The notes beneath the pieces are model-generated. The model was not told the DNA's origin and did no database searches. It saw nothing but the letters and a program-made list of their open reading frames with translations. Positions 1 to 13,144 of a stretch of 13,144 nt of DNA are shown in pieces. The position numbers and the translations under genes are program-made. The stretch lies in the NCBI GenBank assembly GCA_043819075.1, contig JBDRFE010000011.1:1-13144 (forward strand). Reading direction: 5' to 3'. This DNA is from an archaeon (lineage in GTDB: Archaea; Iainarchaeota; Iainarchaeia; Iainarchaeales; 1-14-0-10-31-34). Every line of letters begins with the position of its first letter. Position 1 is the first letter of the stretch.

Positions 1-651
1 CCAGAAATGCTTTTCTTTTGAAAAAGCATGGTTCATTAAAGTGTGCGCCATTTCACTTAATTCTTCATTGGCTGTTACAACCATTCCGCCTTCTCCGGTA
101 GTAATTATTTTGTTTGCATAAAAGCTGAAGCAGCCGCAGTCTCCAATAGAGCCGACTTTTTTTCCTTTGTATAAGGCACCATGGGCTTCAGCCCCGTCTT
201 CTATAACTTTCAGGCCGTGTTTTTCAGCTATTTCCATTAAAGGGTCCATGTCAACTGGATGGCCGTAAGTGTGAACAGGCATTATTGCCTTTGTTTTTTT
301 GGTTATTTTTTCCTCTATTTTGGTTACATCCATATTCCATGTATCCATTTCAGAGTCAACTAAAACAGGTTTTGCTCCTGCATAAATAACTGAATTAGCT
401 GTGGCAACCATTGTGAAAGAAGGCATTATCACTTCATCGCCTTTTTTTATTCCAAGAGAAGCAACAGCCAAATGCAGTGCTGTTGTGCCGCTTGTAGCGC
501 TAATGCCGTATTTTGTGTCACAGAATCCAGCAAATTTTTCCTCAAACTCTTTCACAAAAGGGCCCATAGAAGAAATCCAGTTTGAATCAAAGCATTTTTT
601 TACGTACTCAAATTCTTTTTTCCCGATATTTGGTTCACAGACATGAATCAT
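1..651 (-). CDS. DegT/DnrJ/EryC1/StrS family PLP-dependent sugar aminotransferase, GDP-perosamine synthase-like (3' end runs off the window)
   Basis: Manual translation of the minus strand from ATG at 651 is open to base 1: MIHVCEPNIGKKEFEYVKKCFDSNWISSMGPFVKEFEEKFA...SGTTALHLAVASLGIKKGDEVIMPSFTMVATANSV...IMPVHTYGHPVDMD...IEDGAEAHG...FSFYANKIITTGEGGMVVT. This contains the SGTTALH, EDxAxAHG and SF...NK.ITTGEGG (PLP lysine) motifs. A GAGG SD-like site lies upstream. Not in the ORF track because it has no stop inside the window. Confidence 0.95.
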   Translation of the reverse strand, partial: MIHVCEPNIGKKEFEYVKKCFDSNWISSMGPFVKEFEEKFAGFCDTKYGISATSGTTALHLAVASLGIKKGDEVIMPSFTMVATANSVIYAGAKPVLVDSEMDTWNMDVTKIEEKITKKTKAIMPVHTYGHPVDMDPLMEIAEKHGLKVIEDGAEAHGALYKGKKVGSIGDCGCFSFYANKIITTGEGGMVVTANEELSEMAHTLMNHAFSKEKHFW

Positions 652-705
652 TGTAATCCCTCATACTAAAAATAAATATTAGTTCAGTATATTTATGTTA
701 GAAAA

Positions 706-724
706 TCATTTATATGCTTTTTCG
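706..724 (-). promoter_or_regulatory. Putative archaeal BRE + TATA box for the aminotransferase
   Basis: The minus strand reads CGAAAAAGCATATAAATG, a purine-rich BRE-like run followed by ATATAAAT, about 55-60 nt upstream of the ATG at 651. Confidence 0.5.
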
Positions 725-828
725 TACAAGAATCAAACAATCTAAAATTCTATACAGATGCCTTAATATATGATAAATTTGAATTATCAAATAAAAACAT
801 TTCTTAACATTTTATCTTATAGAATTCT

Positions 829-1452
829 ATGCAACTCAAAGAATATTACAAAGAATATGGAAGAAAAATGCCTGAAGAAAGGGAAAATGGAATCCCTTTA
901 TCTAAAGAAAGAATTCAAAAAATCCTGCCATTCTTTGAAGAACCTATGTTAGATGTTGGCTGTTCAAAAGGGTATGATGTAAGGTATTTTTATAACAAGG
1001 GTTTCAAAAAAACTTTTGGTTGTGACATTTCTGAGGAAGTTATTAGCGTTGCCAATTCGTTTTTGCCTGGCCATTTTTTTGTTCACAACTTTGAAGAAAA
1101 AAAAATTAAAAAAAAATTTAAAACAATTTATTCTTTTGACGTAATTGAACATTTGTTTTTCACAAACGAATTTTTGGAAAACATTTTTTACTCAATACTG
1201 CCAAAAGGCAAATTGATTATCACCTGCCCGAATGTTTTGTCAATAAGAAACAGAATTAATTTTTTGTTTGGCAAAGGAGAATACTTTATTCCAAAACACA
1301 ACTGTCCGCATATAAGATTTTTCAATACAAAAAGTTTAGAGCAAAAATTAAAACAAACAGGTTTCAGAAAAGTCCTTTTCTTTAATGCCTCAAAAATCCC
1401 TTTAATGCCAGATTCTTTAGTTGGCTCAATAACAGCTGTGGCATTAAAATAA
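829..1452 (+). CDS. Class I SAM-dependent methyltransferase (glycan-cluster type)
   Basis: 207 aa. Motif I LDVGCSKG, then GCDIS, FDVIEHL, LIITCPN and HIRFF, which are typical of Methyltransf_11/23-type proteins in polysaccharide loci. Confidence 0.9.
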   Translation: MQLKEYYKEYGRKMPEERENGIPLSKERIQKILPFFEEPMLDVGCSKGYDVRYFYNKGFKKTFGCDISEEVISVANSFLPGHFFVHNFEEKKIKKKFKTIYSFDVIEHLFFTNEFLENIFYSILPKGKLIITCPNVLSIRNRINFLFGKGEYFIPKHNCPHIRFFNTKSLEQKLKQTGFRKVLFFNASKIPLMPDSLVGSITAVALK

Positions 1453-1476
1453 CTTAAAAAAATTTTCTTAATCCTG

Positions 1477-2940
1477 TCAATTACTCCTTTCAATAATTTT
1501 TTTAAAGAAAATAATGTCTTTTTCATCAAAGCCCTTAATTAAAATCAAAACAACAAAATACAAAATAGAAGAAATGATAACCAAAAGAAATATGTTTAAA
1601 AAGAAAAAGAAATAAATAAAAATGAAAATTACAAAACTTGCAATTACACATTTTATTACATCTTTTAACAAAGAAGAAAAATTTAAAAAATGTTTAGAAA
1701 CAAAATATCCTCCTAAAATAAAAAGAGCCAACTCAGATAAAACGCTTGCAAAAGCCGCCCCTATAAAATCATAAATCGGGATTAAAATTAAACTCAAAAA
1801 AATGTTTATAATCAAGGAAATGCCAAAAAGAAAAGAAGCTCTTTTTTCAAAAACAGTAGACTGCAACACATTCAAAAAGACCATATTTAAAAAATTAAAC
1901 ACAGAAAGCCAGATTAAAATTGTCAGTGCCGTAGAAGCCGGGAAAAAATTATTTAACCCAGTAGTAGGGTAAACTAATCCTATAATTCTTTCTGAAAGCA
2001 GTGTTGTGGAAAAAGCTATGGGAAGAACAATAATTAACAAATATTTGGACGATTTTTCAACAACAGTGTTAAGAGACTTGTTAGAAACCGCATAAAAAGA
2101 TGCCATTACTGGAAAAACCACTGTCATAAAAGTTGCAGGCACAAAACCAATAACAGAAACCAATCTCATTGCTGCAGCATAGTAACCAACACTGACATTC
2201 CCCTTAAAAAATAAAAGCGTAATTAAAGCAATGTTCCCATAGATTGCTGTTAATAGGTACATTAAAGAAAACGGCAAACTCAACATAACAAGCTTTTTAT
2301 ATTTTTTAAAATTGAAATTAATTTTAAGTTTGGTAAATTTTCTTGTTACTACAAAGAAACTTAAAATAAAATTAAAAAAGCTTGAAAACACTGCCACAAA
2401 AAAAACTTCTTTTAGCCCATAACCAAAAAAAAGAACTCCGATTGTAAGAAATACAAGAATAATTTTGTAAAAAACATTCACAAAAAAATCATATTGCATT
2501 TCTTGAAAAGCAAAAAAAATCATTCTAAACAGGCCAGCCATTGAATCGAACAACAAAGAACATCCCGCGATCAAAATAAAAAAAAACATAGAAGAGAAAT
2601 ATTTTGTTCCATAAAAGAAATTAAGCAAAGTGCCTAAAACAAAAACAACAATAAGCACAACTAAGGATAAAAATATTTTAATTACAAAAGCATCTCCTAG
2701 AAGTTCACCTGCTTTGCTTTTATCTTTTGCGATTTCCCTGGAAATTAAGACTCCGATCCCTAAATCTCCAAAAACTGTGAAAATTAAAACAAAAGAAAAA
2801 GCAAAAGAATAAACACCAAAATCTCCAACCCCTAATTTTTGTGCAATGTAAATAACCATGCCAAGAGAAAGAATCCTTTGAACAATATTCCCTGCACTAA
2901 GAAAAAAAATATTTTTTCCTATTCTTCTTACAGTACTCAT
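1477..2940 (-). CDS. Wzx/RfbX-type oligosaccharide flippase (MOP superfamily polysaccharide biosynthesis protein)
   Basis: About 488 codons, very hydrophobic with many predicted TM segments. Family-typical segments: RRIGKN..., LGVGDFGVYSFA, DLGIGVLISREIAK, VGYYAAAMRL, LILIPIYDFIGAAFAS. Start placed at ATG 2940 (MSTVRRIGKN); ATG 2946 is an alternative. Confidence 0.93.
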   Translation of the reverse strand: MSTVRRIGKNIFFLSAGNIVQRILSLGMVIYIAQKLGVGDFGVYSFAFSFVLIFTVFGDLGIGVLISREIAKDKSKAGELLGDAFVIKIFLSLVVLIVVFVLGTLLNFFYGTKYFSSMFFFILIAGCSLLFDSMAGLFRMIFFAFQEMQYDFFVNVFYKIILVFLTIGVLFFGYGLKEVFFVAVFSSFFNFILSFFVVTRKFTKLKINFNFKKYKKLVMLSLPFSLMYLLTAIYGNIALITLLFFKGNVSVGYYAAAMRLVSVIGFVPATFMTVVFPVMASFYAVSNKSLNTVVEKSSKYLLIIVLPIAFSTTLLSERIIGLVYPTTGLNNFFPASTALTILIWLSVFNFLNMVFLNVLQSTVFEKRASFLFGISLIINIFLSLILIPIYDFIGAAFASVLSELALFILGGYFVSKHFLNFSSLLKDVIKCVIASFVIFIFIYFFFFLNIFLLVIISSILYFVVLILIKGFDEKDIIFFKKIIERSN

Positions 2941-3051
2941 AACCATCAATAAACAAGACAATAATAAAATCAACTGAATTTAATTAAAATACATTTGAAA
3001 ATCAGTTATTAAAAAGGATTTTGGTACAAAAATAAATACAAAAAAATCACA

Positions 3052-3097
3052 CTATTTAAATTGTTATGAGAACAATATAATAAATTGTTCCAAGTGA
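3052..3097 (+). promoter_or_regulatory. Putative TATA box (TATTTAAAT, 3053-3061), inverted-repeat operator (3070-3090) and GTGA SD upstream of the C-methyltransferase
   Basis: TTTAAA at 3055-3060; GAACAAT-N7-ATTGTTC palindrome at 3070-3090; GTGA at 3094-3097, before ATG 3102. Confidence 0.45.
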
Positions 3098-3101
3098 TTA
3101 A

Positions 3102-4385
3102 ATGAAGAAAGCGGTTGAAATAAAAAAATGCAGGGTTTGCGGTAAAAAAAAATTAATTAAAATACTTTCTTTGGGAAACCAATTTGTGTCAAATTTTGTT
3201 GCAACATCAAAAGAAAAACACGTAAAAATCCCACTGAAACTTGTTTTATGTGATAGCAAGGCAGGTGGTTGCGGATTATTACAATTAAGGCATACAACAC
3301 CATCTAATTTGATGTACCATAATTATTGGTATTTATCTGGGATGAACAAAACAATGATTCTCGCTTTAGCTGATATAACAAAAAAAGCAGAACAAATAAT
3401 TTCATTAAAAAAAAATGATTTGGTTCTTGATATAGGCTGCAATGACGGAACCTTGTTGCGAAACTATCAAACAAAAGGAATCAAACTTATAGGGTTTGAC
3501 CCTGCAAAAAACCTGCTTGCGTACTCTCAAAAAGGAACAACAAAAATAATAAACAATTTCTTTAATGCAAAAGAGTTTCAAAAAGAGTTCAAAGAAGAAA
3601 AAGCGAAGATAATTACAAGCATTGCAATGTTTTACGATTTGGATAAGCCAAACGATTTTGTTAAGGATGTAAAAAAATGTCTGGATGATAATGGTTTATG
3701 GGTAATTCAAATGAGTTACCTTCCTTTAATGCTTGAACAAAATGCATTTGATAACATATGCCATGAACACATAGAATTTTATTCTTTAACTTCACTTGAA
3801 AATTTGCTTAAAAGACATGAAATGGAAGTAATTGGAGTGGAATTAAACAATGTAAATGGGGGAAGTTTTAGAACATATATAAAACACAAAAGAGCCAAAA
3901 TAAAAGCTCTTGAAAAGGAAAAAGAAAAATTATTTGAATTAAGGGACCGCGAAAAAAAAATAGGGCTTGAAACAAAAAAACCTTATGAAGAGTTTGCAGA
4001 AAGGGTAAACAAAATTAAAAAAGAGCTAGTTGAATTCATAAAACAAGAAAATGCAAAAGGAAAAAAAATCTACGTTTATGGGGCATCGACCAAAGGAAAC
4101 ACTCTGCTGCAATTTTTTAACTTAAACAACAAATTGATCAAAGCAGCAGCAGAAAGAAATTTAGACAAAATAGGAAAAAAAACTACAGGGACACTAATTC
4201 CAATAATATCTGAGGAACAAGCAAGAAAAGAAAATCCAGATTACTTTTTAATTTTGCCATGGCATTTCCTGAAGGAATTCACGGAAAGAGAAAAAGAGTA
4301 TCTTGAAAACGGAGGAAAATTTATTGTTCCCTTGCCCGAGCCAAAAATAATAGGAGGATTTGGTTTTGAAGAAGTTCTTGATTAA
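3102..4385 (+). CDS. NDP-hexose C-methyltransferase (TylCIII/EryBIII/NovU/TcaB9-like, Zn-binding N-terminus)
   Basis: 427 aa. N-terminal CRVCG ... LC(x)GCGLLQL zinc site, SAM motif VLDIGCNDG, FDNICHEH, GGSFR, YGASTKGNTLL, ILPWHF and GGKFIVPLP, all characteristic of the three-domain sugar C-methyltransferase family. Confidence 0.92.
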   Translation: MKKAVEIKKCRVCGKKKLIKILSLGNQFVSNFVATSKEKHVKIPLKLVLCDSKAGGCGLLQLRHTTPSNLMYHNYWYLSGMNKTMILALADITKKAEQIISLKKNDLVLDIGCNDGTLLRNYQTKGIKLIGFDPAKNLLAYSQKGTTKIINNFFNAKEFQKEFKEEKAKIITSIAMFYDLDKPNDFVKDVKKCLDDNGLWVIQMSYLPLMLEQNAFDNICHEHIEFYSLTSLENLLKRHEMEVIGVELNNVNGGSFRTYIKHKRAKIKALEKEKEKLFELRDREKKIGLETKKPYEEFAERVNKIKKELVEFIKQENAKGKKIYVYGASTKGNTLLQFFNLNNKLIKAAAERNLDKIGKKTTGTLIPIISEEQARKENPDYFLILPWHFLKEFTEREKEYLENGGKFIVPLPEPKIIGGFGFEEVLD

Positions 4386-5025
4386 ATCCCTGTATTATTA
4401 CCATAAAATTTTTAAGCCTGGCTTTTATTTTAATGGAAAAAAATATACATATTTTGCTGAAAGAAAAGACAAAATGACCTGGAGAAATGAAAGAGCAGTT
4501 GAATTGCCTTTAATGTGGAGCGAAGTTCAAAAGTTTAAAGGAAAAAGAATTCTTGAAATCGGAAATGTTTTATCACATTATTTTTCTTTTGAGCATGATA
4601 TTGTTGATAAATTTGAAAAAGGCAAAGGTGTAATAAACCAAGACGTGGTTGATTTTAAACCCAAAAAAAAATATGATCTGATTGTAAGCATTTCCACTTT
4701 AGAGCATGTTGGCTGCGGCAGATTTAAAGACTGGGACGAATTCCCAAAAGAACCAAAAAAAGTGTTGAGAGCAGTAGAAAACCTAAAAAACAACTGTTTG
4801 GCTGAAGGAGGGAAAATGATTGTTTCAATGCCTGTCAACTATAATGTTGACATGGACAAAATGATAGAGAAAAACGAGATTCCATTTACAGAGAAATTCT
4901 GGCTGAAAAGAATTTCCTGGCTGAATGACTGGAAAGAAGCAGACTGGAATTCTGTTAAGGACGCAGAATTTGATTCACCGTATTCTTTTGCAAACGCACT
5001 GCTGATAGGAATCATCAGAAAATAA
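4366..5025 (+). CDS. SAM-methyltransferase-fold protein, DUF268-like
   Basis: NERAVELP, RILEIGN, YDLIVSISTLEHVGCGRF, LAEGGKMIVSMP. Start placed at TTG 4366 because AGGAGG (4352-4357) lies 8 nt upstream; the track's TTG 4360 is only 2 nt from that SD. Confidence 0.75.
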   Translation: MKKFLIKSLYYYHKIFKPGFYFNGKKYTYFAERKDKMTWRNERAVELPLMWSEVQKFKGKRILEIGNVLSHYFSFEHDIVDKFEKGKGVINQDVVDFKPKKKYDLIVSISTLEHVGCGRFKDWDEFPKEPKKVLRAVENLKNNCLAEGGKMIVSMPVNYNVDMDKMIEKNEIPFTEKFWLKRISWLNDWKEADWNSVKDAEFDSPYSFANALLIGIIRK

Positions 5026-5048
5026 ATAAAGAAAGGAAAAGAAACTAG

Positions 5049-6143
5049 ATGAAACCAAAAAAAGTTCTTCTTATATCTGATTTTGCTTTTCCTGTTAAAG
5101 CAGGGACTGAAAGACTGGTTTTTGGTGCAGCTGAATGGCTGAACAAAAACGGAATAAAAACTGACATTCTTACGCCAAATTGGGATAACTTAAAAGAACA
5201 TGAAATACAGGAAAAAGTAAATATTTACAGGTTCAACACACATGAAATAACGCGCACAAATCCGTTGAAAAGAATACAAGATTACATTAATGCAGGAAAA
5301 AAACTGGAAAAATATGACATTTACCACGGATTTTATACTATGCCACCGTTAATTGCGGCTATCCTGTTAGCAAAAAAAATGAAAGCAAAATCAGTAATTA
5401 CTTTTTTTGGAAGAGAGCAACTGGAAAAAAATTTTTCAAACCCAATAAAAAAATTTTTTCTTCTGAATGAACTGAAGAAAGCAGACAAGATAACAACATA
5501 TACCTGGAATTTGCAGGAATATTTTGAAGAAAAATATTTCAAGAACAAAAATATTACTACCTTGCAGGGCTGGTCTGAACACAAGTTTAGAAAAATTGAA
5601 TGCATTAAGCCTGAAAAAAAAATTGTTTTGTTTGTGGGAAGAATTGATGAAAGCAAAGGGGTTTTTGTTTTAGTTGATGCATTTGAAAAAATTAAGGACA
5701 GAGTTAATGCAAAACTTGTTTTTGTTGGCCCTCCATATGAAAAAGAAAAGCTTGAAAAAAGAATAAAAGAAAAAAAAATGGAAAGCATAGTTGAAATAAG
5801 AGGTTTTGTTTCAGATGAGGAACTCAACGAGCTTTACAGTTCAAGCGAAGTGGTGGCAGTTCCTGCATTGCACGGAGACGCATTTGGTTTAAGCTTAATG
5901 GAAGCAATGGCGTTAGGGAAACCTGTTATATGCACTGACTCAGCCGGATCTCCCGACAAAAAAAAGGAAGAAGAATTAATTGTTGAAAGAGGGAACTCAA
6001 ATGAGTTGGCAGAAATGCTTGAAAAACTTTTGACTGACAGGGATTTTTATGAAAAAGCAGTAAATGTCTCAAAAAAAAGAGCTAAATTATTTGAAAAAGA
6101 AAAAGTAATGCAAAAGTACGCAAATATCTACAATTCACTTTAA
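5049..6143 (+). CDS. Glycosyltransferase family 4 (GT-B fold)
   Basis: 364 aa. N-terminal FPVKAGTER, VLFVGRIDESKG, RGFVSDEEL, DAFGLSLMEAMALGKPVI. An AAGGA SD-like site lies upstream. Confidence 0.93.
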   Translation: MKPKKVLLISDFAFPVKAGTERLVFGAAEWLNKNGIKTDILTPNWDNLKEHEIQEKVNIYRFNTHEITRTNPLKRIQDYINAGKKLEKYDIYHGFYTMPPLIAAILLAKKMKAKSVITFFGREQLEKNFSNPIKKFFLLNELKKADKITTYTWNLQEYFEEKYFKNKNITTLQGWSEHKFRKIECIKPEKKIVLFVGRIDESKGVFVLVDAFEKIKDRVNAKLVFVGPPYEKEKLEKRIKEKKMESIVEIRGFVSDEELNELYSSSEVVAVPALHGDAFGLSLMEAMALGKPVICTDSAGSPDKKKEEELIVERGNSNELAEMLEKLLTDRDFYEKAVNVSKKRAKLFEKEKVMQKYANIYNSL

Positions 6144-6854
6144 TTTTATGTTTTTTATCATAGATGCTGCCCTGAATAATGACTCAAATGTTCCTGCATC
6201 ACTCCAATAGCCATTTAAAAAATTTGCCTTAAGCTTTTTTTTCCTGATAAAAGCATTATTGACATCAGTTATTTCCAGTTCGCCTCTTCCGGAAGGCTTT
6301 AATGACCTGATTATCTTGAATACCTCTGGAGGATACAAATAGATTCCGGTTACAGCAAAATTTGTTTTCGGTGTTTTAGGTTTTTCTTCAATTGAAACAA
6401 CTTCTTTTCCTTTCAGTTCTGCAACACCAAACCTTTTTGCATCAACAACTTCTTTCAAAAAAATAAAAGCCGAATCAGATGACGACTCAAATTCTTTTAC
6501 CGAAGAAGCAATTGAATCCTCTAAAATGTTGTCGCCTAAAACAACGGCAATTTTTTCGTTGTCAGCAAAATTTTCTGCCAAAGACAATGCCTGTGCAATT
6601 CCTCCTGCTTCTTCCTGGATTTCATAAGTAAACCTTGCATTAAATTCCTTTCCAGAGCCCAACAGCTTTAGGAAGTCACCTGCATGCTCTTTGCCTGAAA
6701 TAATCATAATGTCTTTTATTCCTGCTTCAAGAAGAGTATTCAAAGGAAAATAAATCATCGGCTTGTCGTAAACAGGAAGAAGGTGCTTATTGGTTACTTT
6801 AGTCAAAGGAAAAAGCCTGCTTCCTGTTCCACCTGCAAGAATTACGCCTTTCAT
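6135..6854 (-). CDS. rmlA: Glucose-1-phosphate thymidylyltransferase, short form
   Basis: GVILAGGTGSRLFPLTKVTNKHLLPVYDKPMI, LGDN, EEKP, AVTGIY, SGRGELEITDVN, WSDAGT. Overlaps the rmlD stop by 4 nt (ATGA). Confidence 0.92.
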   Translation of the reverse strand: MKGVILAGGTGSRLFPLTKVTNKHLLPVYDKPMIYFPLNTLLEAGIKDIMIISGKEHAGDFLKLLGSGKEFNARFTYEIQEEAGGIAQALSLAENFADNEKIAVVLGDNILEDSIASSVKEFESSSDSAFIFLKEVVDAKRFGVAELKGKEVVSIEEKPKTPKTNFAVTGIYLYPPEVFKIIRSLKPSGRGELEITDVNNAFIRKKKLKANFLNGYWSDAGTFESLFRAASMIKNIKLK

Positions 6855-7705
6855 AAGTTCATCTGCTTTTTTACTTTAATTAAACCTTCTTCCACCGAAC
6901 TCATTTTAATTCCTTGCAGCTGAATTTTCGTAATGTCAAGAGAAGAATCAACTGGCCTTTTTGCTTTCCAGCCAGGAACTCCAACAGCTTGTTTCACCAA
7001 AGAAGAATCCAATTCAAAAACCCTGCAGATCTTCATCAGCAAATCATATCTTGAACAGGACTCGCTTCCTGCAACATGAAACAAGCCAGAAAAATTTTTT
7101 TCAAGCATGAAATAAACTGCTTCTGCGGCATCGTCAATTAAAGTGGGAGAATTTGTTATGTTTGCTACAAGAACTTCCTTGTGGTTCTTCAGCTGTTCTA
7201 TTGCATAACACACAAAAGTGTTTTTGTCTTCAATAGAGTTGAAACCATATAACAATGAAACCCTTGCAATCAAAAAAGAATCTGTTCCTTTTACCAGTTC
7301 TTCTCCTTGAACTTTTGTTTTACCGTAAAAGTTTATTGGATTGGTTTTGTCGTTTTCAGTGTAATTCCCTTTTATTCCGTCAAAAACATAGTCAGTTGAA
7401 AAAAAAACAAGCTTTGAATTGAATGCACGGCAGGCATCAACAACATTTCTTGTGCCTTCAAAATTCACTTCAGTTGCCTGAATTTTGTGTGCCTCGCAAA
7501 AGTCAACGCTTGTTATTCCTGCAGTAAGCAAAACTATATCAGGGTTAAGGTCTTTAAACAAATAAATCAATGACTGCTCGTCTGTTATGTCAAGGGAATA
7601 ATCAACTTTTCCTGCAATGTCAGCTGTAACTATTTTTATTCCTTTTTTCCTGAAAACAGAAACAAGTTTTTCCCCTAAAAAGCCTTTTCCTATAAGGAAA
7701 ATCAT
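6851..7705 (-). CDS. rmlD: dTDP-4-dehydrorhamnose reductase family SDR
   Basis: IGKGFLG Rossmann motif, TSVDFCE, FSTDYVFDG, PINFYGKTK (YxxxK), SPT, RP..SSL. Start at ATG 7705 gives an ATGA overlap with the rmlB stop. Confidence 0.88.
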   Translation of the reverse strand: MIFLIGKGFLGEKLVSVFRKKGIKIVTADIAGKVDYSLDITDEQSLIYLFKDLNPDIVLLTAGITSVDFCEAHKIQATEVNFEGTRNVVDACRAFNSKLVFFSTDYVFDGIKGNYTENDKTNPINFYGKTKVQGEELVKGTDSFLIARVSLLYGFNSIEDKNTFVCYAIEQLKNHKEVLVANITNSPTLIDDAAEAVYFMLEKNFSGLFHVAGSESCSRYDLLMKICRVFELDSSLVKQAVGVPGWKAKRPVDSSLDITKIQLQGIKMSSVEEGLIKVKKQMNL

Positions 7706-8658
7706 TTTTTCTTCAATGGCTCCCACCACCAGGAATTCTGTTTATACCATGAAATTGTTTCCTTTAATGCAGTTTCAAAAGAATGCTCTGGCTTAAAGCC
7801 TAAATCATTTATTTTAGTGCAGTCCAAAGCATACCTTAAGTCATGGCCTTTCCTGTCTTCAACAAATTCAATCATGCTTTTATTCTTTCCTAATTCATTT
7901 AAAATAAATTCTGTTACCTCTAAATTTGTTTTCTCATTTCCTGCCCCGGCATTAAATGTTTCTCCTTTTTTTCCTTTCTCCATTACTTTAATTATTGCAT
8001 CACAGTTGTCTTTGACAAAAATCCAGTCCCTTGAATTTTTTCCGTCACCATAAACAGGCACTTTCTTGTTTTCAAGCAGATTGGTTACAAACAATGGAAT
8101 CAGTTTTTCAGGAAACTGGTTTGGACCGAAATTATTTGACGAACGAGTAATCTTTACATCTAAGCCATAAGTCTTGAAATAAGAAAAAGCAAGCCTGTCA
8201 GCTCCGGCTTTTGAAGCAGAATAAGGCGAAGACGGCATTAAAGGGCTGTCCTCGGAAAAAAAACCGTTGTTAATGCTGCCATACACTTCATCAGTTGAGA
8301 TTTGAATTATGCCAATGTCTTTTTTTCTTGCTTCCTCTAACAAGACAAATGTTCCAAAAACATCTGTTTTAATGAAGTCTTCAGGAGAAGTGATTGAACG
8401 GTCAACATGGGATTCAGCTGCAAAATTAATTATTAAATCAGAATCTTTTGCGGCTTTTGCAACAATTTTTTTGTCACAAATGTCGCCTTTAATGAAAGAA
8501 TAATTTTTGTTTGATTCAACTTCTTTCAGGTTTTCAAGCCTGCCGGCATAAGTCAGCTTGTCTAAATTTGTTATTTTTGCTTCAGGGTAAACAGAAAAAA
8601 AATGCTTGATAAAATTGCTGCCAATAAAGCCTGCCCCGCCTGTTACAAGAACATTCAT
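7702..8658 (-). CDS. rmlB: dTDP-glucose 4,6-dehydratase
   Basis: LVTGGAGFIGSN, DKLTYAG, FAAESHVDRSI, ISTDEVYG, PSSPYSASKA, NNFGPNQFPEKLIP, DRKGHDLRY. Start at ATG 8658 with a GTGG SD-like site. Confidence 0.96.
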   Translation of the reverse strand: MNVLVTGGAGFIGSNFIKHFFSVYPEAKITNLDKLTYAGRLENLKEVESNKNYSFIKGDICDKKIVAKAAKDSDLIINFAAESHVDRSITSPEDFIKTDVFGTFVLLEEARKKDIGIIQISTDEVYGSINNGFFSEDSPLMPSSPYSASKAGADRLAFSYFKTYGLDVKITRSSNNFGPNQFPEKLIPLFVTNLLENKKVPVYGDGKNSRDWIFVKDNCDAIIKVMEKGKKGETFNAGAGNEKTNLEVTEFILNELGKNKSMIEFVEDRKGHDLRYALDCTKINDLGFKPEHSFETALKETISWYKQNSWWWEPLKKK

Positions 8659-8690
8659 TTCAACCACAAAAATATAATCAAGCAAAACAA

Positions 8691-9626
8691 TTAAAGATTA
8701 TTAACTCCCTTAAAATAATCAATTGTAATCTTTAATCCTTCTTCTAACGGAACTTTTGGCTTCCAGCCGAGCTTTTCTACTGCAAGCGAAATATCAGGTT
8801 TTCTCTGCTTTGGGTCGTCTTTTAACGCAGGAAGGAATTCAATTTCAAGGTCTTTATTGCTTAACTTTTTTATTTTTTCAGCAAACTCAAGTATAGTGAA
8901 TTCTTCAGGGTTTCCTAAATTTACAGGCCCGGAAAAATCCGATTCCATCATTTTAATTAATCCTTCAACCATGTCAGAAACAAAACAAAAGCTTCTTGTC
9001 TGCTTTCCGTTTCCGTAAACTGTCAGAGGCTTGTTGTTTAATGCCTGAACAATAAAATTCGGAACAACCCTTCCGTCATCTGGCTTCATTTTAGGGCCAT
9101 AGGTGTTGAATATCCTAACAATTTTTCCCTTAAAAGAAAACTTTTTTTCATATGCCTTGATTAATGCCTCAGAAAAACGCTTTGATTCATCATAACAGGA
9201 ACGTTCGCCAACAGGATTAACATTACCCCAATAAGATTCTTTTTGCGGGTGCTCCAAAGGGTCGCCGTAAATTTCTGAAGTAGAAGTAAACAAAAATTTT
9301 GCCTTGTTTTTTAATGCCAGATCCAAAAGATTTTTTGTCCCAAGAGAACCAACCAGCATTGTTTCAACTGGCTTGGAAAAATAATCAACCGGAGAAGCAA
9401 GAGAAGCTAAATGATAAACTTCTTCAAATTTTTCTTCAAAAGAAAAACTATTAATGTCCTGCTGAATAAAATGAAATCTTTTATTTTCAAGCAAAAAAGC
9501 AATGTTTTTTTTGTTTCCTGAAATTAAATTGTCTGCACAAAAAACTTCTTTCTTTTTTTCAAGCAATGCCTCGCATAAATTGCTTCCGATGAATCCTGCC
9601 CCGCCTGCAACCAGAACTTTTTCCAT
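8691..9626 (-). CDS. uxs: UDP-glucuronate decarboxylase (UDP-xylose synthase)
   Basis: GGAGFIGS, HLASLASPVDY, TSTSEIYGDP, YWGNVNPVGERSCYDESKR, RIFNTYGP, DGRVVPNFIVQAL, QTRSFCFVSD, DDPKQRKPDI. Confidence 0.92.
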   Translation of the reverse strand: MEKVLVAGGAGFIGSNLCEALLEKKKEVFCADNLISGNKKNIAFLLENKRFHFIQQDINSFSFEEKFEEVYHLASLASPVDYFSKPVETMLVGSLGTKNLLDLALKNKAKFLFTSTSEIYGDPLEHPQKESYWGNVNPVGERSCYDESKRFSEALIKAYEKKFSFKGKIVRIFNTYGPKMKPDDGRVVPNFIVQALNNKPLTVYGNGKQTRSFCFVSDMVEGLIKMMESDFSGPVNLGNPEEFTILEFAEKIKKLSNKDLEIEFLPALKDDPKQRKPDISLAVEKLGWKPKVPLEEGLKITIDYFKGVNNL

Positions 9627-9635
9627 AAAAAAACC

Positions 9636-10511
9636 TTAAAGCAGGTTCCTCATGATTTCCCTTGCTTCTTTTCTCATGTCATCTCTTTGCATTGAATACT
9701 CAAGGCATGCTTTCAAGTAGCTTATTTTGTCTCCGACAGTAAGCCATTTGCCGTCTTTTATTTCATAAGCCATCATTTTGTCAATTTCATTTAAAACCCT
9801 TAATCCGTCAGTTAACTGCAGTTCGTTTCCCTTGCCAAAAGGCACTTCCTCTAAAATCCCAAAAATTTCAGGCTTCAACAAATATCTTCCGACAATAGCT
9901 AAATTTGACGGGGCTTTGCTTGCAACAGGCTTTTCAACCATGTCCTGCACAACAATTTCCCCGTCTTTTTTTTTGTATTTTATTACCCCAAATTTTGATA
10001 CCTCTGTTTTCGGAACTTGTGCAACACACAAAACAGAACTGTTGAATTTGTCATGAATGTCAATCAATTTTTTGAGTGCAGGCTCTTTTGAAAGAATTAA
10101 GTCATCGCCAAGCATTACAGCAAAAGGCTCATTGCCAATATGCTTTTTTGCGCATAAAACAGCATGACCTAAACCCAATGGCTCTTTTTGCCTGATGTAA
10201 TGAATGTCAGCCAAAGAATCAATTCTCTTCATTTTGCCAAGCAAATCTTTTTTCTGTTTTTTTTCAAGCAAGTCATATAATTCACTTGAATGGTCAAAAT
10301 GGTTTTCAATTGCAGTCTTGTCTTTTCCTGTGACAATAATAATGTCCTGAATTCCAGAGGCAACAGCTTCTTCAACTAAATACTGGATTGCAGGCTTGTC
10401 AACAACAGGAAACATTTCTTTTGGCACAGCCTTTGAAGCAGGCAAAAACCTTGTGCCTAACCCTGCAGCAGGAATAACCGCTTTCCTGACAAAATTTCTT
10501 TCTTTACCCAT
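9636..10511 (-). CDS. galU: UTP--glucose-1-phosphate uridylyltransferase
   Basis: KAVIPAAGLGTRFLPASKAVPKEM, IENHFD, RQKEPLGLGHAV, LGDD, VEKP, GRY, ELQLTD. ATG 10511 is preceded by a GGTGA SD (10518-10522) that contains the ugd stop. Confidence 0.95.
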   Translation of the reverse strand: MGKERNFVRKAVIPAAGLGTRFLPASKAVPKEMFPVVDKPAIQYLVEEAVASGIQDIIIVTGKDKTAIENHFDHSSELYDLLEKKQKKDLLGKMKRIDSLADIHYIRQKEPLGLGHAVLCAKKHIGNEPFAVMLGDDLILSKEPALKKLIDIHDKFNSSVLCVAQVPKTEVSKFGVIKYKKKDGEIVVQDMVEKPVASKAPSNLAIVGRYLLKPEIFGILEEVPFGKGNELQLTDGLRVLNEIDKMMAYEIKDGKWLTVGDKISYLKACLEYSMQRDDMRKEAREIMRNLL

Positions 10512-10517
10512 TTTCAA

Positions 10518-11783
10518 TCACCACGACAGCCCTACATAATTAACAATTTTCTTTTCTTTAAAAATGTTTCTGGCATCAAAAACAGGCTTTCCCCTGAAAT
10601 CCAGGCCAGAAAACTCAGGCCAGCCGGTCAAAACAAGGATTAAATCGCTTGAATCAATTGTTTTCTGGGCTGAATCGGCATAAGATATTCCTGAAATTTC
10701 TTTTTTCATGTTTTTTTCTGCTTTAGGGTCATGCGCCAAAACAACAGCTTTTTCTTTTAAAAGCAATTTAATTACCGGAATAGAACGGCTTTCCCTTACA
10801 TCATCTGTTCCGGGCTTGAAAGCCAATCCAAGCACACCAACTTTTTTTCCTTTAAGGCTGGTTTTAGACTTGATTAAGTCAAGAAAAATTTTTGGCTGTT
10901 CTTCGTTGACTTTCATCACAGAGTCAAGCAAAAAAGTTTTTACCCCAAGCTCTTTTCCTTTTGCAATTAAAGCAGAAACATCTTTTGGAAAACAGCTTCC
11001 TCCGAAGCCCAGGCCAGCATTCAAAAAATGAGGTGAAATTCTTTTATCCAAGCCAACTCCTTTTGCAACAGTATAAGTGTTAATTCCCAGCTTTTTACAG
11101 ATATTGCCTACTTCATTAATAAAAGAAATTTTTGCTGCAAGCAAAGAATTGGAAGCGTATTTAATCATTTCAGCTTCAGACAGCCCGCAATAAAACTTTG
11201 GAGAAGAAAAATCTGCATAAACTTGGTTCAAAACATTTTCTGTTTTTTTGTCGGTTAAACCCAAAATAATCCTGTCAGGGTTCAGAAAATCTTCAAGCGC
11301 AAAGCCTTCCCTTAATGTTTCAGGGTTCATGCACAAGCCGAATTCACCTGATTTTTTTCCTGAAAATTTTTCAAGCAAAGGCAAAACAATTTTTTCTGTA
11401 GTAGAAGGCACCACAGTGCTTTTCACAACAACAACATGAAAAGAATTTTTTTCTTTTAACGCCAAAGCAAGCTGTTTTGAAACAGACTCAACTGCACTCA
11501 AATCACATTTGCCTTTTTCATCACAAGGAGTTCCCACACAAATAAAAGATACATCGGATTCAAGAACTGATTTTTTTAAGTCAGCTGAAGCAGTCAAAGA
11601 AACAGGGACAACCTTGTTTAATGCTTCCTGCAATCCTTCTTCAAAAATAGGGGGAATTTTATTGTTAATCATTTCAACTTTTTCAGTATTGTTGTCAACA
11701 CAGACAACTTTATGGCCTTTAAGCGCAAAGCCGACTCCGGTAATAAGGCCGACATAGCCTGTTCCGATAACAGAAATATTCAT
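10518..11783 (-). CDS. ugd: UDP-glucose 6-dehydrogenase (UDP-glucose/GDP-mannose dehydrogenase family)
   Basis: IGTGYVG, ICVGTP, KSTV, NPETLREG, AEMIKYASN, GFGGSCFPKD (catalytic Cys), GLAFKPGTDDVRES, DARN. ATG 11783 with GGATGTGA upstream. Confidence 0.94.
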   Translation of the reverse strand: MNISVIGTGYVGLITGVGFALKGHKVVCVDNNTEKVEMINNKIPPIFEEGLQEALNKVVPVSLTASADLKKSVLESDVSFICVGTPCDEKGKCDLSAVESVSKQLALALKEKNSFHVVVVKSTVVPSTTEKIVLPLLEKFSGKKSGEFGLCMNPETLREGFALEDFLNPDRIILGLTDKKTENVLNQVYADFSSPKFYCGLSEAEMIKYASNSLLAAKISFINEVGNICKKLGINTYTVAKGVGLDKRISPHFLNAGLGFGGSCFPKDVSALIAKGKELGVKTFLLDSVMKVNEEQPKIFLDLIKSKTSLKGKKVGVLGLAFKPGTDDVRESRSIPVIKLLLKEKAVVLAHDPKAEKNMKKEISGISYADSAQKTIDSSDLILVLTGWPEFSGLDFRGKPVFDARNIFKEKKIVNYVGLSW

Positions 11784-11794
11784 TAAATCACATC

Positions 11795-11807
11795 CATAAG
11801 CAGTATG
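11795..11807. promoter_or_regulatory. Putative operator 1 (CATA-N5-TATG), next to the ugd start
   Basis: CATAagcAGTATG, 11 nt upstream of the ugd ATG; matches operator 2 at 10 of 13 positions. Confidence 0.55.
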
Positions 11808-11820
11808 TAATAAAAAAAAC

Positions 11821-11840
11821 AAGAAAAGGCTTTAAAATAA
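11821..11840. promoter_or_regulatory. Putative (bidirectional) BRE/TATA element of the divergent ugd / regulator promoter
   Basis: AAGAAAAGGC TTTAAAATAA: a purine-rich BRE-like run, then the palindromic TTTAAA at 11831-11836, lying between the two operators. Confidence 0.55.
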
Positions 11841-11846
11841 GAATGA

Positions 11847-11863
11847 GTCATATGAAGTATGAC
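11847..11863. promoter_or_regulatory. Putative operator 2 (GTCATA-N5-TATGAC)
   Basis: Perfect 6-5-6 inverted repeat ending 5 nt before the ATG of the RHH-fusion gene. Confidence 0.65.
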
Positions 11864-11868
11864 AGTGT

Positions 11869-12675
11869 ATGAGAAAAAGGGTTACAATCACAATAAAAGA
11901 AGACATTCTCAGGCAGGTTGACAGGATAGTTGACGGATTAAGCATCAGGAGCAGGAGCCAGGCAATGGAATACCTTTTGTCAAAAACCCTTTCTGATTAC
12001 AAAATAAAAAATGCACTGGTTTTAGCAGGGGGAAAAGAGCTGATAAAAGGAGTGGAAGAAAAAAGCAGGTTTTTGCTTGAAATAAACGGGAAACCCCTCC
12101 TTGAAAAAGTGATAAATCATTTAGAGGAATTCAATGCAGGCAAAATAACTGTGAATGTTGACTCAAACAAAGAAAAAATAATTAATGCATTAAACAGGAA
12201 AAAAATTTCAGCTGACTTTCTTGAACTCGAAAAATCTTCGGGAACAATTGAACCGCTTTCTAGGATGAAAAACCAGTTCACTGACACTTTTATTGTGGTT
12301 AACGGCGACACATTATCAAGCATTAACTTAAATGAAATGCTTTCCTTTCACAGAACAAACAAATCTATTGCAACAATTGCATTGACGACAGTAAACAATC
12401 CAAGGGATTACGGGGTGGCAATGCTGCAGGGGGAAAAAATAACTGATTTTACAGAAAAACCGAAAAAAGAGGCAGGAAGCTATCTGATTAGCGCAGGATA
12501 TTATATTTTTGAACCAGAAATATTCAGATACATTTCCAGGAACATGAAAAGCATTGAAAAAGACTTGTTTCCAAGGCTGGTGGAAAAAGGGCTTTTAATC
12601 GGCTATCCTTTTCAGGGAATGTACTTTAACATCAACACAAAAAAAGACTTTGAGAAAGCAAAAAGAATTTTGTGA
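11869..12675 (+). CDS. Ribbon-helix-helix (NikR/CopG-like) domain fused to a degenerate sugar-phosphate nucleotidyltransferase domain; putative transcriptional regulator
   Basis: Residues 1-42 MRKRVTITIKEDILRQVDRIVDGLSIRSRSQAMEYLL have the RHH pattern (alternating beta-strand, LxxxD helix, SRS turn). The remainder is NTP-transferase-like (LVLAGG, INGKP, VNGD, DYGV, FTEKP, AGYYIF, SIEKDLFP) but lacks the GxGTR and PK motifs. Confidence 0.85.
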   Translation: MRKRVTITIKEDILRQVDRIVDGLSIRSRSQAMEYLLSKTLSDYKIKNALVLAGGKELIKGVEEKSRFLLEINGKPLLEKVINHLEEFNAGKITVNVDSNKEKIINALNRKKISADFLELEKSSGTIEPLSRMKNQFTDTFIVVNGDTLSSINLNEMLSFHRTNKSIATIALTTVNNPRDYGVAMLQGEKITDFTEKPKKEAGSYLISAGYYIFEPEIFRYISRNMKSIEKDLFPRLVEKGLLIGYPFQGMYFNINTKKDFEKAKRIL

Positions 12676-12684
12676 GGCTCATCC

Positions 12685-12720
12685 AAAAAACCTTTTAAAA
12701 AAAGGTTTAACAAAAAAAAA
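12685..12720 (-). terminator. Putative terminator between convergent genes (AT-rich hairpin plus T-tracts)
   Basis: AAACCTTTT-aaa-AAAAGGTTT inverted repeat at 12688-12708. On the minus strand it is preceded by T9 (12712-12720) and ends in T6 (12685-12690). Confidence 0.5.
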
Positions 12721-12727
12721 CAGCGAA

Positions 12728-13144
12728 CTACGCATAAAAACTTTCAAACAATTCTTTTTCCTCTAAAACCTGTTTTTCTGTAATACCCTTAAAGTGCTCG
12801 ATTATAACAGGAATTTTTTTAATCTGCTTTATTGGCTTCAATAATTCAAGCTCTTTTTCTGTTACAGGCTGATGGATTTTTTTTCCAACAGGCCTATGCA
12901 AATGAATCTCATTAATTTTTCCGCTGAACTGAATTAAATCAGGATAAGTTTTGTCCGACAAGGAATGCCCTAAATCAAACAATAAACCAAGCGAAGGAAA
13001 AGAACTGAATACTTTTTCAAAGTTTTTTCCATAAACCAGGGCTTTTTCTTCTGTTGAAGTAATGTTTTCAATTACAAGCTCAAACTTGTTTCCGGGATTT
13101 TTTTCAGAAAAATATTCAAGAACTTCAAACAAATTTTTCCAGGA
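12728..13144 (-). CDS. Sugar phosphate isomerase/epimerase / AP endonuclease 2 family TIM-barrel protein, C-terminal part (5' end outside the window)
   Basis: The frame stays open to the window edge (SWKNLFEV...). Metal-ligand pattern LVIENI, LLFDLGH, EIHLH, H, VIIEH. Confidence 0.8.
   Translation of the reverse strand, partial: SWKNLFEVLEYFSEKNPGNKFELVIENITSTEEKALVYGKNFEKVFSSFPSLGLLFDLGHSLSDKTYPDLIQFSGKINEIHLHRPVGKKIHQPVTEKELELLKPIKQIKKIPVIIEHFKGITEKQVLEEKELFESFYA

Follow-up and report, generated by a model that had tools for sequence, protein, structure and literature searches.

P0001, annotated as a sugar-activating enzyme, very probably encodes a DNA-binding regulator whose enzyme half carries out no chemistry. 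It lies in the 13,144-nucleotide stretch of archaeal DNA that we analysed (the window), and we consider it likely that its product senses a nucleotide sugar or a sugar phosphate, represses its own gene and controls the divergent operon. That operon had been described as one of six genes, and six same-strand genes from ugd to rmlA do occupy the strand opposite P0001 (Table 1). The SDR enzyme encoded there is presumably a UDP-xylose synthase, a label that we assigned from its motifs and position. Between this gene and rmlB (8685-8691) rmlC is absent; congeners have rmlC there.

Table 1. Features of the P0001 locus, in window coordinates
Feature	Position	Strand	Basis or remark
rmlB-, rmlD- and rmlA-like genes	6135..8685	-	Translations and profiles
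SDR enzyme, UDP-xylose-synthase-like	8691..9626	-	SDR by profile; no specific model passed
GalU	9636..10517	-	TIGR01099 over cut-off
UDP-glucose dehydrogenase (ugd), first gene of the divergent operon	10518..11783	-	Pfam
Ribosome-binding-site-like sequence of ugd	11788..11795	-	Promoter inspection
TATA-like box	11831..11839	.	10-12 nt from the operator in 15/18 ugd loci scored
One-mismatch fourth subsite	11838-11842	.	Abuts the TATA-like box
Predicted operator TCATA-N5-TATGA-N5-TATGA (TCATA 11848-52, TATGA 11858-62, TATGA 11868-72, the last including the start codon)	11848..11872	.	
RHH-pseudo-nucleotidyltransferase gene, P0001, 268 aa	11869..12675	+	ORF and translation, Pfam, homologue search, AlphaFold2 model
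NikR-like ribbon-helix-helix domain, aa 1-44, recognition strand R4-V-T6-I-T8	11869..12000	+	Profile and alignment; model helices 11-21, 29-43
GDP-mannose-pyrophosphorylase-like domain, aa 46-268, without beta-helix	12004..12672	+	Structure match, Foldseek, alignment
Decayed pyrophosphate-binding loop, aa 56-66	12034..12066	+	Mean column identity 0.33, variable length
Asn254, replacing the second catalytic Asp (VTC1 Asp219)	12628..12630	+	116/116 homologues; alignment to VTC1
Xylose-isomerase-like TIM-barrel gene, C-terminal half; between the P0001 gene and the intact-loop paralogue on contig C42	12728..13144	-	

The fusion of an N-terminal ribbon-helix-helix (RHH) domain to an NTP-transferase domain, proposed in the initial annotation, was confirmed. 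The Pfam model NTP_transferase (PF00483) matched residues 65-242 with E=4e-22. RHH_1 (PF01402) fell under its cut-off on the full-length protein (residues 4-37, E=0.003); residues 1-44 searched alone scored 22.2 bits, over the cut-off of 20.5, and 35 of 36 N-termini of the family matched the same model. No NCBIfam model passed its cut-off among the 25 matches listed. In the AlphaFold2 monomer (116-row alignment, mean pLDDT 89.9) the two RHH helices precede the enzyme fold at pLDDT 82-87 and the N-terminal strand is extended and unpaired; the homodimer prediction scored 0.17 and 0.01 against a mark of 0.42. The best PDB match of the family RHH profile was Escherichia coli NikR (E=2.4e-4), which shares with P0001 the N-terminal RHH, the RVTIT strand and an RS-E/Q-A second helix (PDB 1q5v, 2bj1). 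Unlike NikR, P0001 has no nickel-binding domain (PF08753), and its residues 46-268 form a nucleotidyltransferase fold. Human GMPPB (7d72_K) superimposed on the model with Z 28.0 and an rmsd of 1.9 A over 221 aligned residues, in agreement with Foldseek. A scan of positions 12600-12800 for sigma-70 promoters and terminators found nothing, and two RNA runs contributed 0 and 1 short piece at the locus.

A protein search with P0001 gave 331 matches; the best 120 were listed, nearly all full length, and 116 of those were aligned. Active-site residues were mapped by transferring the description of the plant enzyme VTC1, as given in the accessible text of PMC9168903, through the P0001-VTC1 alignment. 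Over the 116 homologues the RHH is the best-conserved part of the family, with a mean column identity of 0.77 versus 0.48 in the N-lobe and 0.72 in the remainder of the enzyme domain; in the phosphate loop it was 0.33. VTC1 residues Gly85 and Gly146 correspond to G125 and G182 (116/116 each), Asp111, the first catalytic Asp, to D147 (115/116), Glu195 to E230 (115/116), and the EK after strand 10 to E/Q196-K197, with the Lys in all 116. Lys23 of VTC1 falls on position 67, which is Lys in 88 homologues and Arg in 27. The family has lost the loop pair Thr12-Arg13, which binds pyrophosphate, and Asp219, which is Asn in every homologue. The loop pattern GG.G[TSEK]R occurs in one homologue of the 116, P0001 lacks the GxG(T/S)R loop, and loop length varies from 4 to 16 residues. 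Loss of the second Gly and of the triphosphate-binding Arg, and the change of the C-terminal metal-ligand Asp to Asn, had been noticed in P0001 and turned out to be family traits. All motifs quoted for RmlA, GalU and P0001 are present in the translations; the change of the catalytic Lys to Arg holds in P0001 but is no family trait, and retention of NGD and EKP holds in P0001 but not family-wide (YGD in 100/116, QKP in 41/116).

This residue pattern bears on two other readings. It is highly improbable that P0001 is still active, as a bifunctional enzyme-regulator of unusual chemistry, because the pyrophosphate loop ranges so widely in length and the second catalytic Asp is absent throughout, even if Lys67 (or Arg) and Asp147 are kept, a few members such as P0013 retain the loop Thr-Arg, and intact-loop relatives exist. 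A regulator blind to any ligand, with the enzyme domain as a mere scaffold for dimer-dimer contacts, would fit members that lost far more of this domain, such as the 209-aa protein of L073, but is very improbable given a pocket that stays near-invariant, Asn254 included, while the N-lobe drifts. VTC1 reads guanine through an acidic residue that has no counterpart conserved in register here (position 120 is variable), so the alignment does not say which nucleotide would be bound. P0001 shares the fold of active NDP-sugar pyrophosphorylases (PF00483) and differs from them in having neither the pyrophosphate loop nor the second catalytic Asp.

The closest folds are those of GMPPA/GMPPB and plant KONJAC/VTC1 (PDB 7d72, 8yre, 7x8j), where an inactive paralogue likewise stands beside an apparently active one. 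P0001 might accordingly be a GMPPA-like subunit, its dead domain binding GDP-mannose and inhibiting the neighbouring intact-loop enzyme through RHH pairing, with DNA binding secondary. GMPPA does bind GDP-mannose and inhibit GMPPB, according to the accessible part of PMC11228364, the nearest solved relatives are GMPPB and VTC1, and most Iainarchaeota loci carry an intact-loop nucleotidyltransferase within a few genes. However, GMPPA and GMPPB assemble mainly through the left-handed beta-helix domain (PMC9168903, same text), which these proteins of 268-281 aa do not have, P0001 ending at its catalytic domain. In all but one family the neighbouring enzyme lacks an RHH, and the operator accompanies the gene even in loci without a nearby intact partner. 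P0001 also has a DNA-binding domain and a predicted operator, whereas GMPPA acts allosterically on an enzyme. We therefore regard the subunit reading as improbable, although such a role could coexist with DNA-binding regulation. GMPPA was the analogy drawn earlier; NrtR is the closer functional model.

Evidence for regulation came from the promoters. Upstream alignments placed TCATA-N5-TATGA-N5-TATGA between a TATA-like box and the start, and a matrix built from other genomes' promoters ranked the assembly's three promoters of RHH-nucleotidyltransferase (RHH-NT) genes 1 to 3 among 2.47 million positions. Exact TATGA/TCATA pairs with a 10-bp period were found in 39 of 64 family promoters from archaea and Patescibacteria (start codon excluded) and were missing from 25; nine other periods gave 0-1 of 64. 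Neighbouring control promoters carried such pairs in 6 of 518 cases, and four of these six represent two displaced family operators at or beside gmhA and one before another gene. The 64-promoter set and the five-genome Woesearchaeota-type set below each include the unpublished genome G160, on which no conclusion rests. A start-codon artefact was rejected: the signal persists without the ATG-containing subsite, and in four loci (L035, L036, L121, L126) a considerable distance separates the upstream repeat from the start codon. Where the divergent gene is present, the ugd promoter carried the exact site in 13 of 16 genomes; where it is absent, 0 of 13 had a site even within one mismatch. This comparison is among kin, over an intergenic region common to ugd and the regulator, and thus not independent of self-regulation. 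In three Woesearchaeota-type loci inserted genes part the regulator from the operon, and the site is found apart from the regulator, in two cases 29 nt ahead of gmhA; the operator is therefore not only autoregulatory.

GTATGA is the NikR operator half-site in the accessible part of PMC7055735 and occurs in the P0001 family operator too. The family half-sites follow a 10-bp period, direct or inverted, whereas those of NikR are 16 bp apart (same source). Woesearchaeota members have a K-x-A-x-S strand yet the same half-site, which calls for caution on the match of strand and half-site with NikR. NikR itself was rejected as the binder in four genomes (G000, G002, G005, G006), where NikR_C was not found; it was found in G007. 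Each of five Woesearchaeota-type genomes has the local palindrome only once, and five Patescibacteria-labelled genomes carry 1, 1, 1, 0 and 4 copies of the direct repeat, none of the three extra sites being linked to sugar genes. Ten genomes outside the source genus held 12 exact palindromes versus 10 in the reversed control, no genome-wide excess; seven of the 12 belong to RHH-NT promoters. What we observed directly are the domains, the residue pattern, and the conservation and co-occurrence of the sites. The conserved divergent layout, the operator that travels with the gene and the NikR-matching recognition strand argue, at the level of sequence, for the one-component regulator of a divergent nucleotide-sugar operon proposed earlier.

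Gene neighbourhoods vary among lineages. The decayed gene of Iainarchaeota loci nearly always stands head-to-head with ugd, behind which come galU-like and SDR genes and sometimes fbp, fba or pgm. Woesearchaeota-type loci have the family facing gmhA and heptose genes near aglB; in L050-L082 the operon opposite is ADP/GDP-heptose-like (gmhA, pfkB kinases), and the family member adjoins a GT9 heptosyltransferase and aglB, a neighbourhood hinting at heptose in N-glycans. A family member lies upstream of glmS and glmU-like genes in three Patescibacteria-type loci, with gap directly after it in two. In these loci (L041:7995-15420, L042, L043) the RHH fusion heads gap, a helix-turn-helix gene that we take to be TrmB-like, glmS and glmU-like genes, and three GTATGA-type repeats lie over a sigma-70-like promoter. 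Positions 1-6143 of our window carry more surface-glycan genes (DegT aminotransferase, two methyltransferases, Wzx-like flippase, sugar C-methyltransferase and GT4), where no operator was found within one mismatch.

Close homologues of P0001 are labelled Ca. Diapherotrites/Iainarchaeum and Aenigmarchaeota, which points to an Iainarchaeota origin for the window. Among 148 cluster representatives, 121 have the RHH, 114 of these without the loop pattern, a strict pattern under which partly decayed loops count as lost. A midpoint-rooted FastTree of 177 enzyme domains joined the Iainarchaeota and Aenigmarchaeota clade containing P0001, all decayed, into one group (support 0.989). The RHH profile matched 42 of 151 genomes of the source phylum. 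When the intact-loop paralogue was the query, the RHH was found in 61 of 119 proteins, and 54 of the 61 keep both loop and Lys, so the RHH-NT architecture is not confined to pseudoenzymes. One intact-loop fusion (P0315), on a 2.76-Mb contig, carries the Asgard label Ca. Atabeyarchaeum deiterrae. Databases name the family nucleotidyltransferase or mannose-1-phosphate guanylyltransferase, as had been foreseen of automated annotation.

That paralogue is a second RHH fusion of the same assembly (C42:451-1296, the same as L111:451-1296), 38% identical to P0001, with GxGTR loop and Lys intact and a GDP-mannose-dehydratase-like gene directly after it. Contig C42 follows on from the window. One TIM-barrel gene is split between the two contigs, as residues 1-122 and 135-260, and in a near-identical strain a 5,545-bp contig crosses the window end, with the matching stretch 989 letters on. 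The paralogue thus lies some 1.7 kb downstream of P0001, and relatives show the same order. Its residues make enzymatic activity likely rather than certain because the last motif is a variant, WFPTD, present in RHH-less relatives too. Iainarchaeotal intact-loop nucleotidyltransferases with or without RHH (L111:451-1296, L119, L038-L040, L034, L123) have WFPTD for WxDxG, the Asp being shifted two places. A single-sequence model of the paralogue reached pLDDT 41. Downstream of it (L113-L130), Iainarchaeota loci share conserved neighbours for the salvage of purines and methylthioadenosine (APRT, MTAP, MtnA, amidohydrolase). A 79%-identical copy on C43 is probably from a congener, since the bin (G000) has 25 gene pairs at 65-98% identity, among them a second ugd, galU, P0001 gene, nadA and DegT aminotransferase. 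The duplicate regions include C43:1-2872, C41/C70 and window 1-651 versus C50, and the bin is probably a mixture of congeners.

We also looked for the operator elsewhere in the genomes. TCATA-N5-TATGA occurs 8 times in this assembly against an expectation of 0.52, and 0-2 times at 12 other spacings; the eight sites lie at three RHH-NT promoters, gap-pgk, fbp-fba, gdh and two nadA copies. Five congeners held 26 exact sites versus 3 in the reversed control, 25 of them at RHH-NT (6), ppdK (4), gdh (4), gap (3), transketolase (3), fbp (2), nadA (2) and ald (1) promoters and one elsewhere. Across the six genus genomes, 33 of 34 exact sites were thus at carbon/nadA or regulator promoters. In this assembly ppdK has no site and the region upstream of transketolase is off the contig. 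Leaving out fragment or second-copy loci (L198-200, L226, L229), gap, ppdK and gdh promoters had the exact site in 13 of 18 cases within the genus and in 0 of 66 outside it, where one had a site with one mismatch; a phylum-wide carbon regulon was accordingly rejected. nadA had the site in 4 of 6 genus loci versus 0 of 15 others, several of which covered less upstream sequence. Outside the genus, a TCATAC-N4-TCATAC direct repeat precedes gap in G022 (L187) and a family palindrome precedes a dehydrogenase gene (L070:5374), possibly independent regulon gains.

Two operator matrices, from 17 decayed-type and 8 intact-type self-operators, separated 24 of 25 on leave-one-out, these being few and related sequences. 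Of 25 distant sites scored, 19 were intact-like and 6 decayed-like (all four nadA sites and, narrowly, two ppdK sites); carbon-gene sites thus resemble the operator of the intact paralogue, and nadA sites that of P0001. The intact-loop paralogue is the likelier binder at the central-carbon sites, while P0001 probably also controls nadA in the genus; cross-binding or mixed dimers are possible. Another genus-specific factor could instead bind TTCATA-N5-TATGAA at the carbon genes, their likeness to RHH-NT operators being convergence, since the sites are limited to the genus though two sister genera (G006, G007) have both paralogues. This we find unlikely, for within the genus the sites hardly differ from the operator of the intact paralogue itself, and RHH-NT genes are the only regulator genes among the 34 exact sites.

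Returning to control by the two paralogues, site placement gives some indication of its sign. At most of the gap, ppdK, gdh and ald sites, a TATA-like box lies 23-37 nt upstream, a position suited to repression; transketolase and fbp are less clear. At the nadA sites a conserved box of this kind follows 10 nt downstream, matching the ugd geometry, which favours activation of ugd and nadA. The weak fourth subsite abuts the box, both nadA copies in this assembly have a TATA-like box on the other side too, and elsewhere the family would, by position, repress; for these reasons we leave activation and repression of the operon about equally likely.

RHH proteins bind DNA as dimers through a two-stranded sheet. 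Going by this binding mode, each RHH dimer would read one GTATGA/TCATAC-type subsite, and subsites every 10 bp would place two or three dimers on one face of the DNA. Because the operator covers its own start, P0001 would repress itself, and with the operator 10 nt upstream of the TATA box common to the ugd-galU-uxs-rml operon, it would control this operon as well; the box probably serves both directions. Since ugd consumes NAD, control of nadA might match NAD supply to the NAD-using ugd step. The dead pyrophosphorylase domain would bind a ligand and tune DNA binding. In VTC1 the pyrophosphate loop takes no part in product binding, as reported in the accessible text of PMC9168903, and by analogy a product-like nucleotide sugar would be the best guess, one that we put slightly above even; a sugar-1-phosphate is a clearly weaker candidate, and another ligand, or none, a little weaker again. 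The clues diverge, with ancestry pointing to GDP-sugars and the operon to UDP-sugars. Binding, ligand, sign and assignment of paralogues to sites are what we infer from the observations above.

In the accessible text of PMC2330246, NrtR is likewise an enzyme-derived sensor joined to a DNA-binding domain, annotated as an enzyme and encoded beside its pathway genes, with a catalytic signature that has decayed in many members but survives in some. NrtR differs in being a bacterial Nudix-winged helix protein that senses ADP-ribose, whereas the P0001 family combines an RHH with an NDP-sugar pyrophosphorylase fold in DPANN archaea and Patescibacteria; the analogy is functional only. The regulon proposed for the genus resembles that of TrmBL1 and TrmB, which also regulate archaeal glycolysis and gluconeogenesis through a palindrome with a 5-bp spacer, but they are unrelated proteins (winged helix plus sugar-binding domain) with the motif TATCAC-N5-GTGATA (PMC4706686, accessible part). 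TrmBL1 represses from downstream and activates from upstream of the TATA box (same part), and targets of TrmB/TrmBL1 have been rewired between relatives (PMC10817205, accessible part). We found no description of an RHH-NT fusion in the open literature, subscription journals being outside the search, nor any mention of one in the accessible part of PMC6393860, so the earlier remark that no characterised regulator of this architecture was known stands within the literature searched.

The RHH-NT proteins would be a new family among enzyme-derived one-component regulators. More tentatively, and at rather less than even probability, they would form a regulator family of DPANN archaea and Patescibacteria (with one Asgard-labelled member) that reads nucleotide-sugar status. 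In the genus, the dead copy would control the UDP-sugar/rhamnose operon and nadA, and the intact copy would be catalytically active and at the same time repress the pathway leading from amino acids through gluconeogenesis (gdh, ald, ppdK, gap-pgk, fbp, transketolase). For uncultured lineages with reduced genomes, about whose gene regulation little is known, this would provide a family of transcription factors together with an operator and a regulon open to testing. Hundreds of database entries that now read nucleotidyltransferase or mannose-1-phosphate guanylyltransferase would be corrected. The intact, decayed and RHH-less forms of the family would offer a natural series for the change from enzyme to sensor, and a DNA binder that responds directly to nucleotide sugars, if it is one, would be a useful biosensor part. 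If the division of labour between the two paralogues is true, surface-glycan precursor levels would set central carbon flux, the role that TrmB plays in other archaea.
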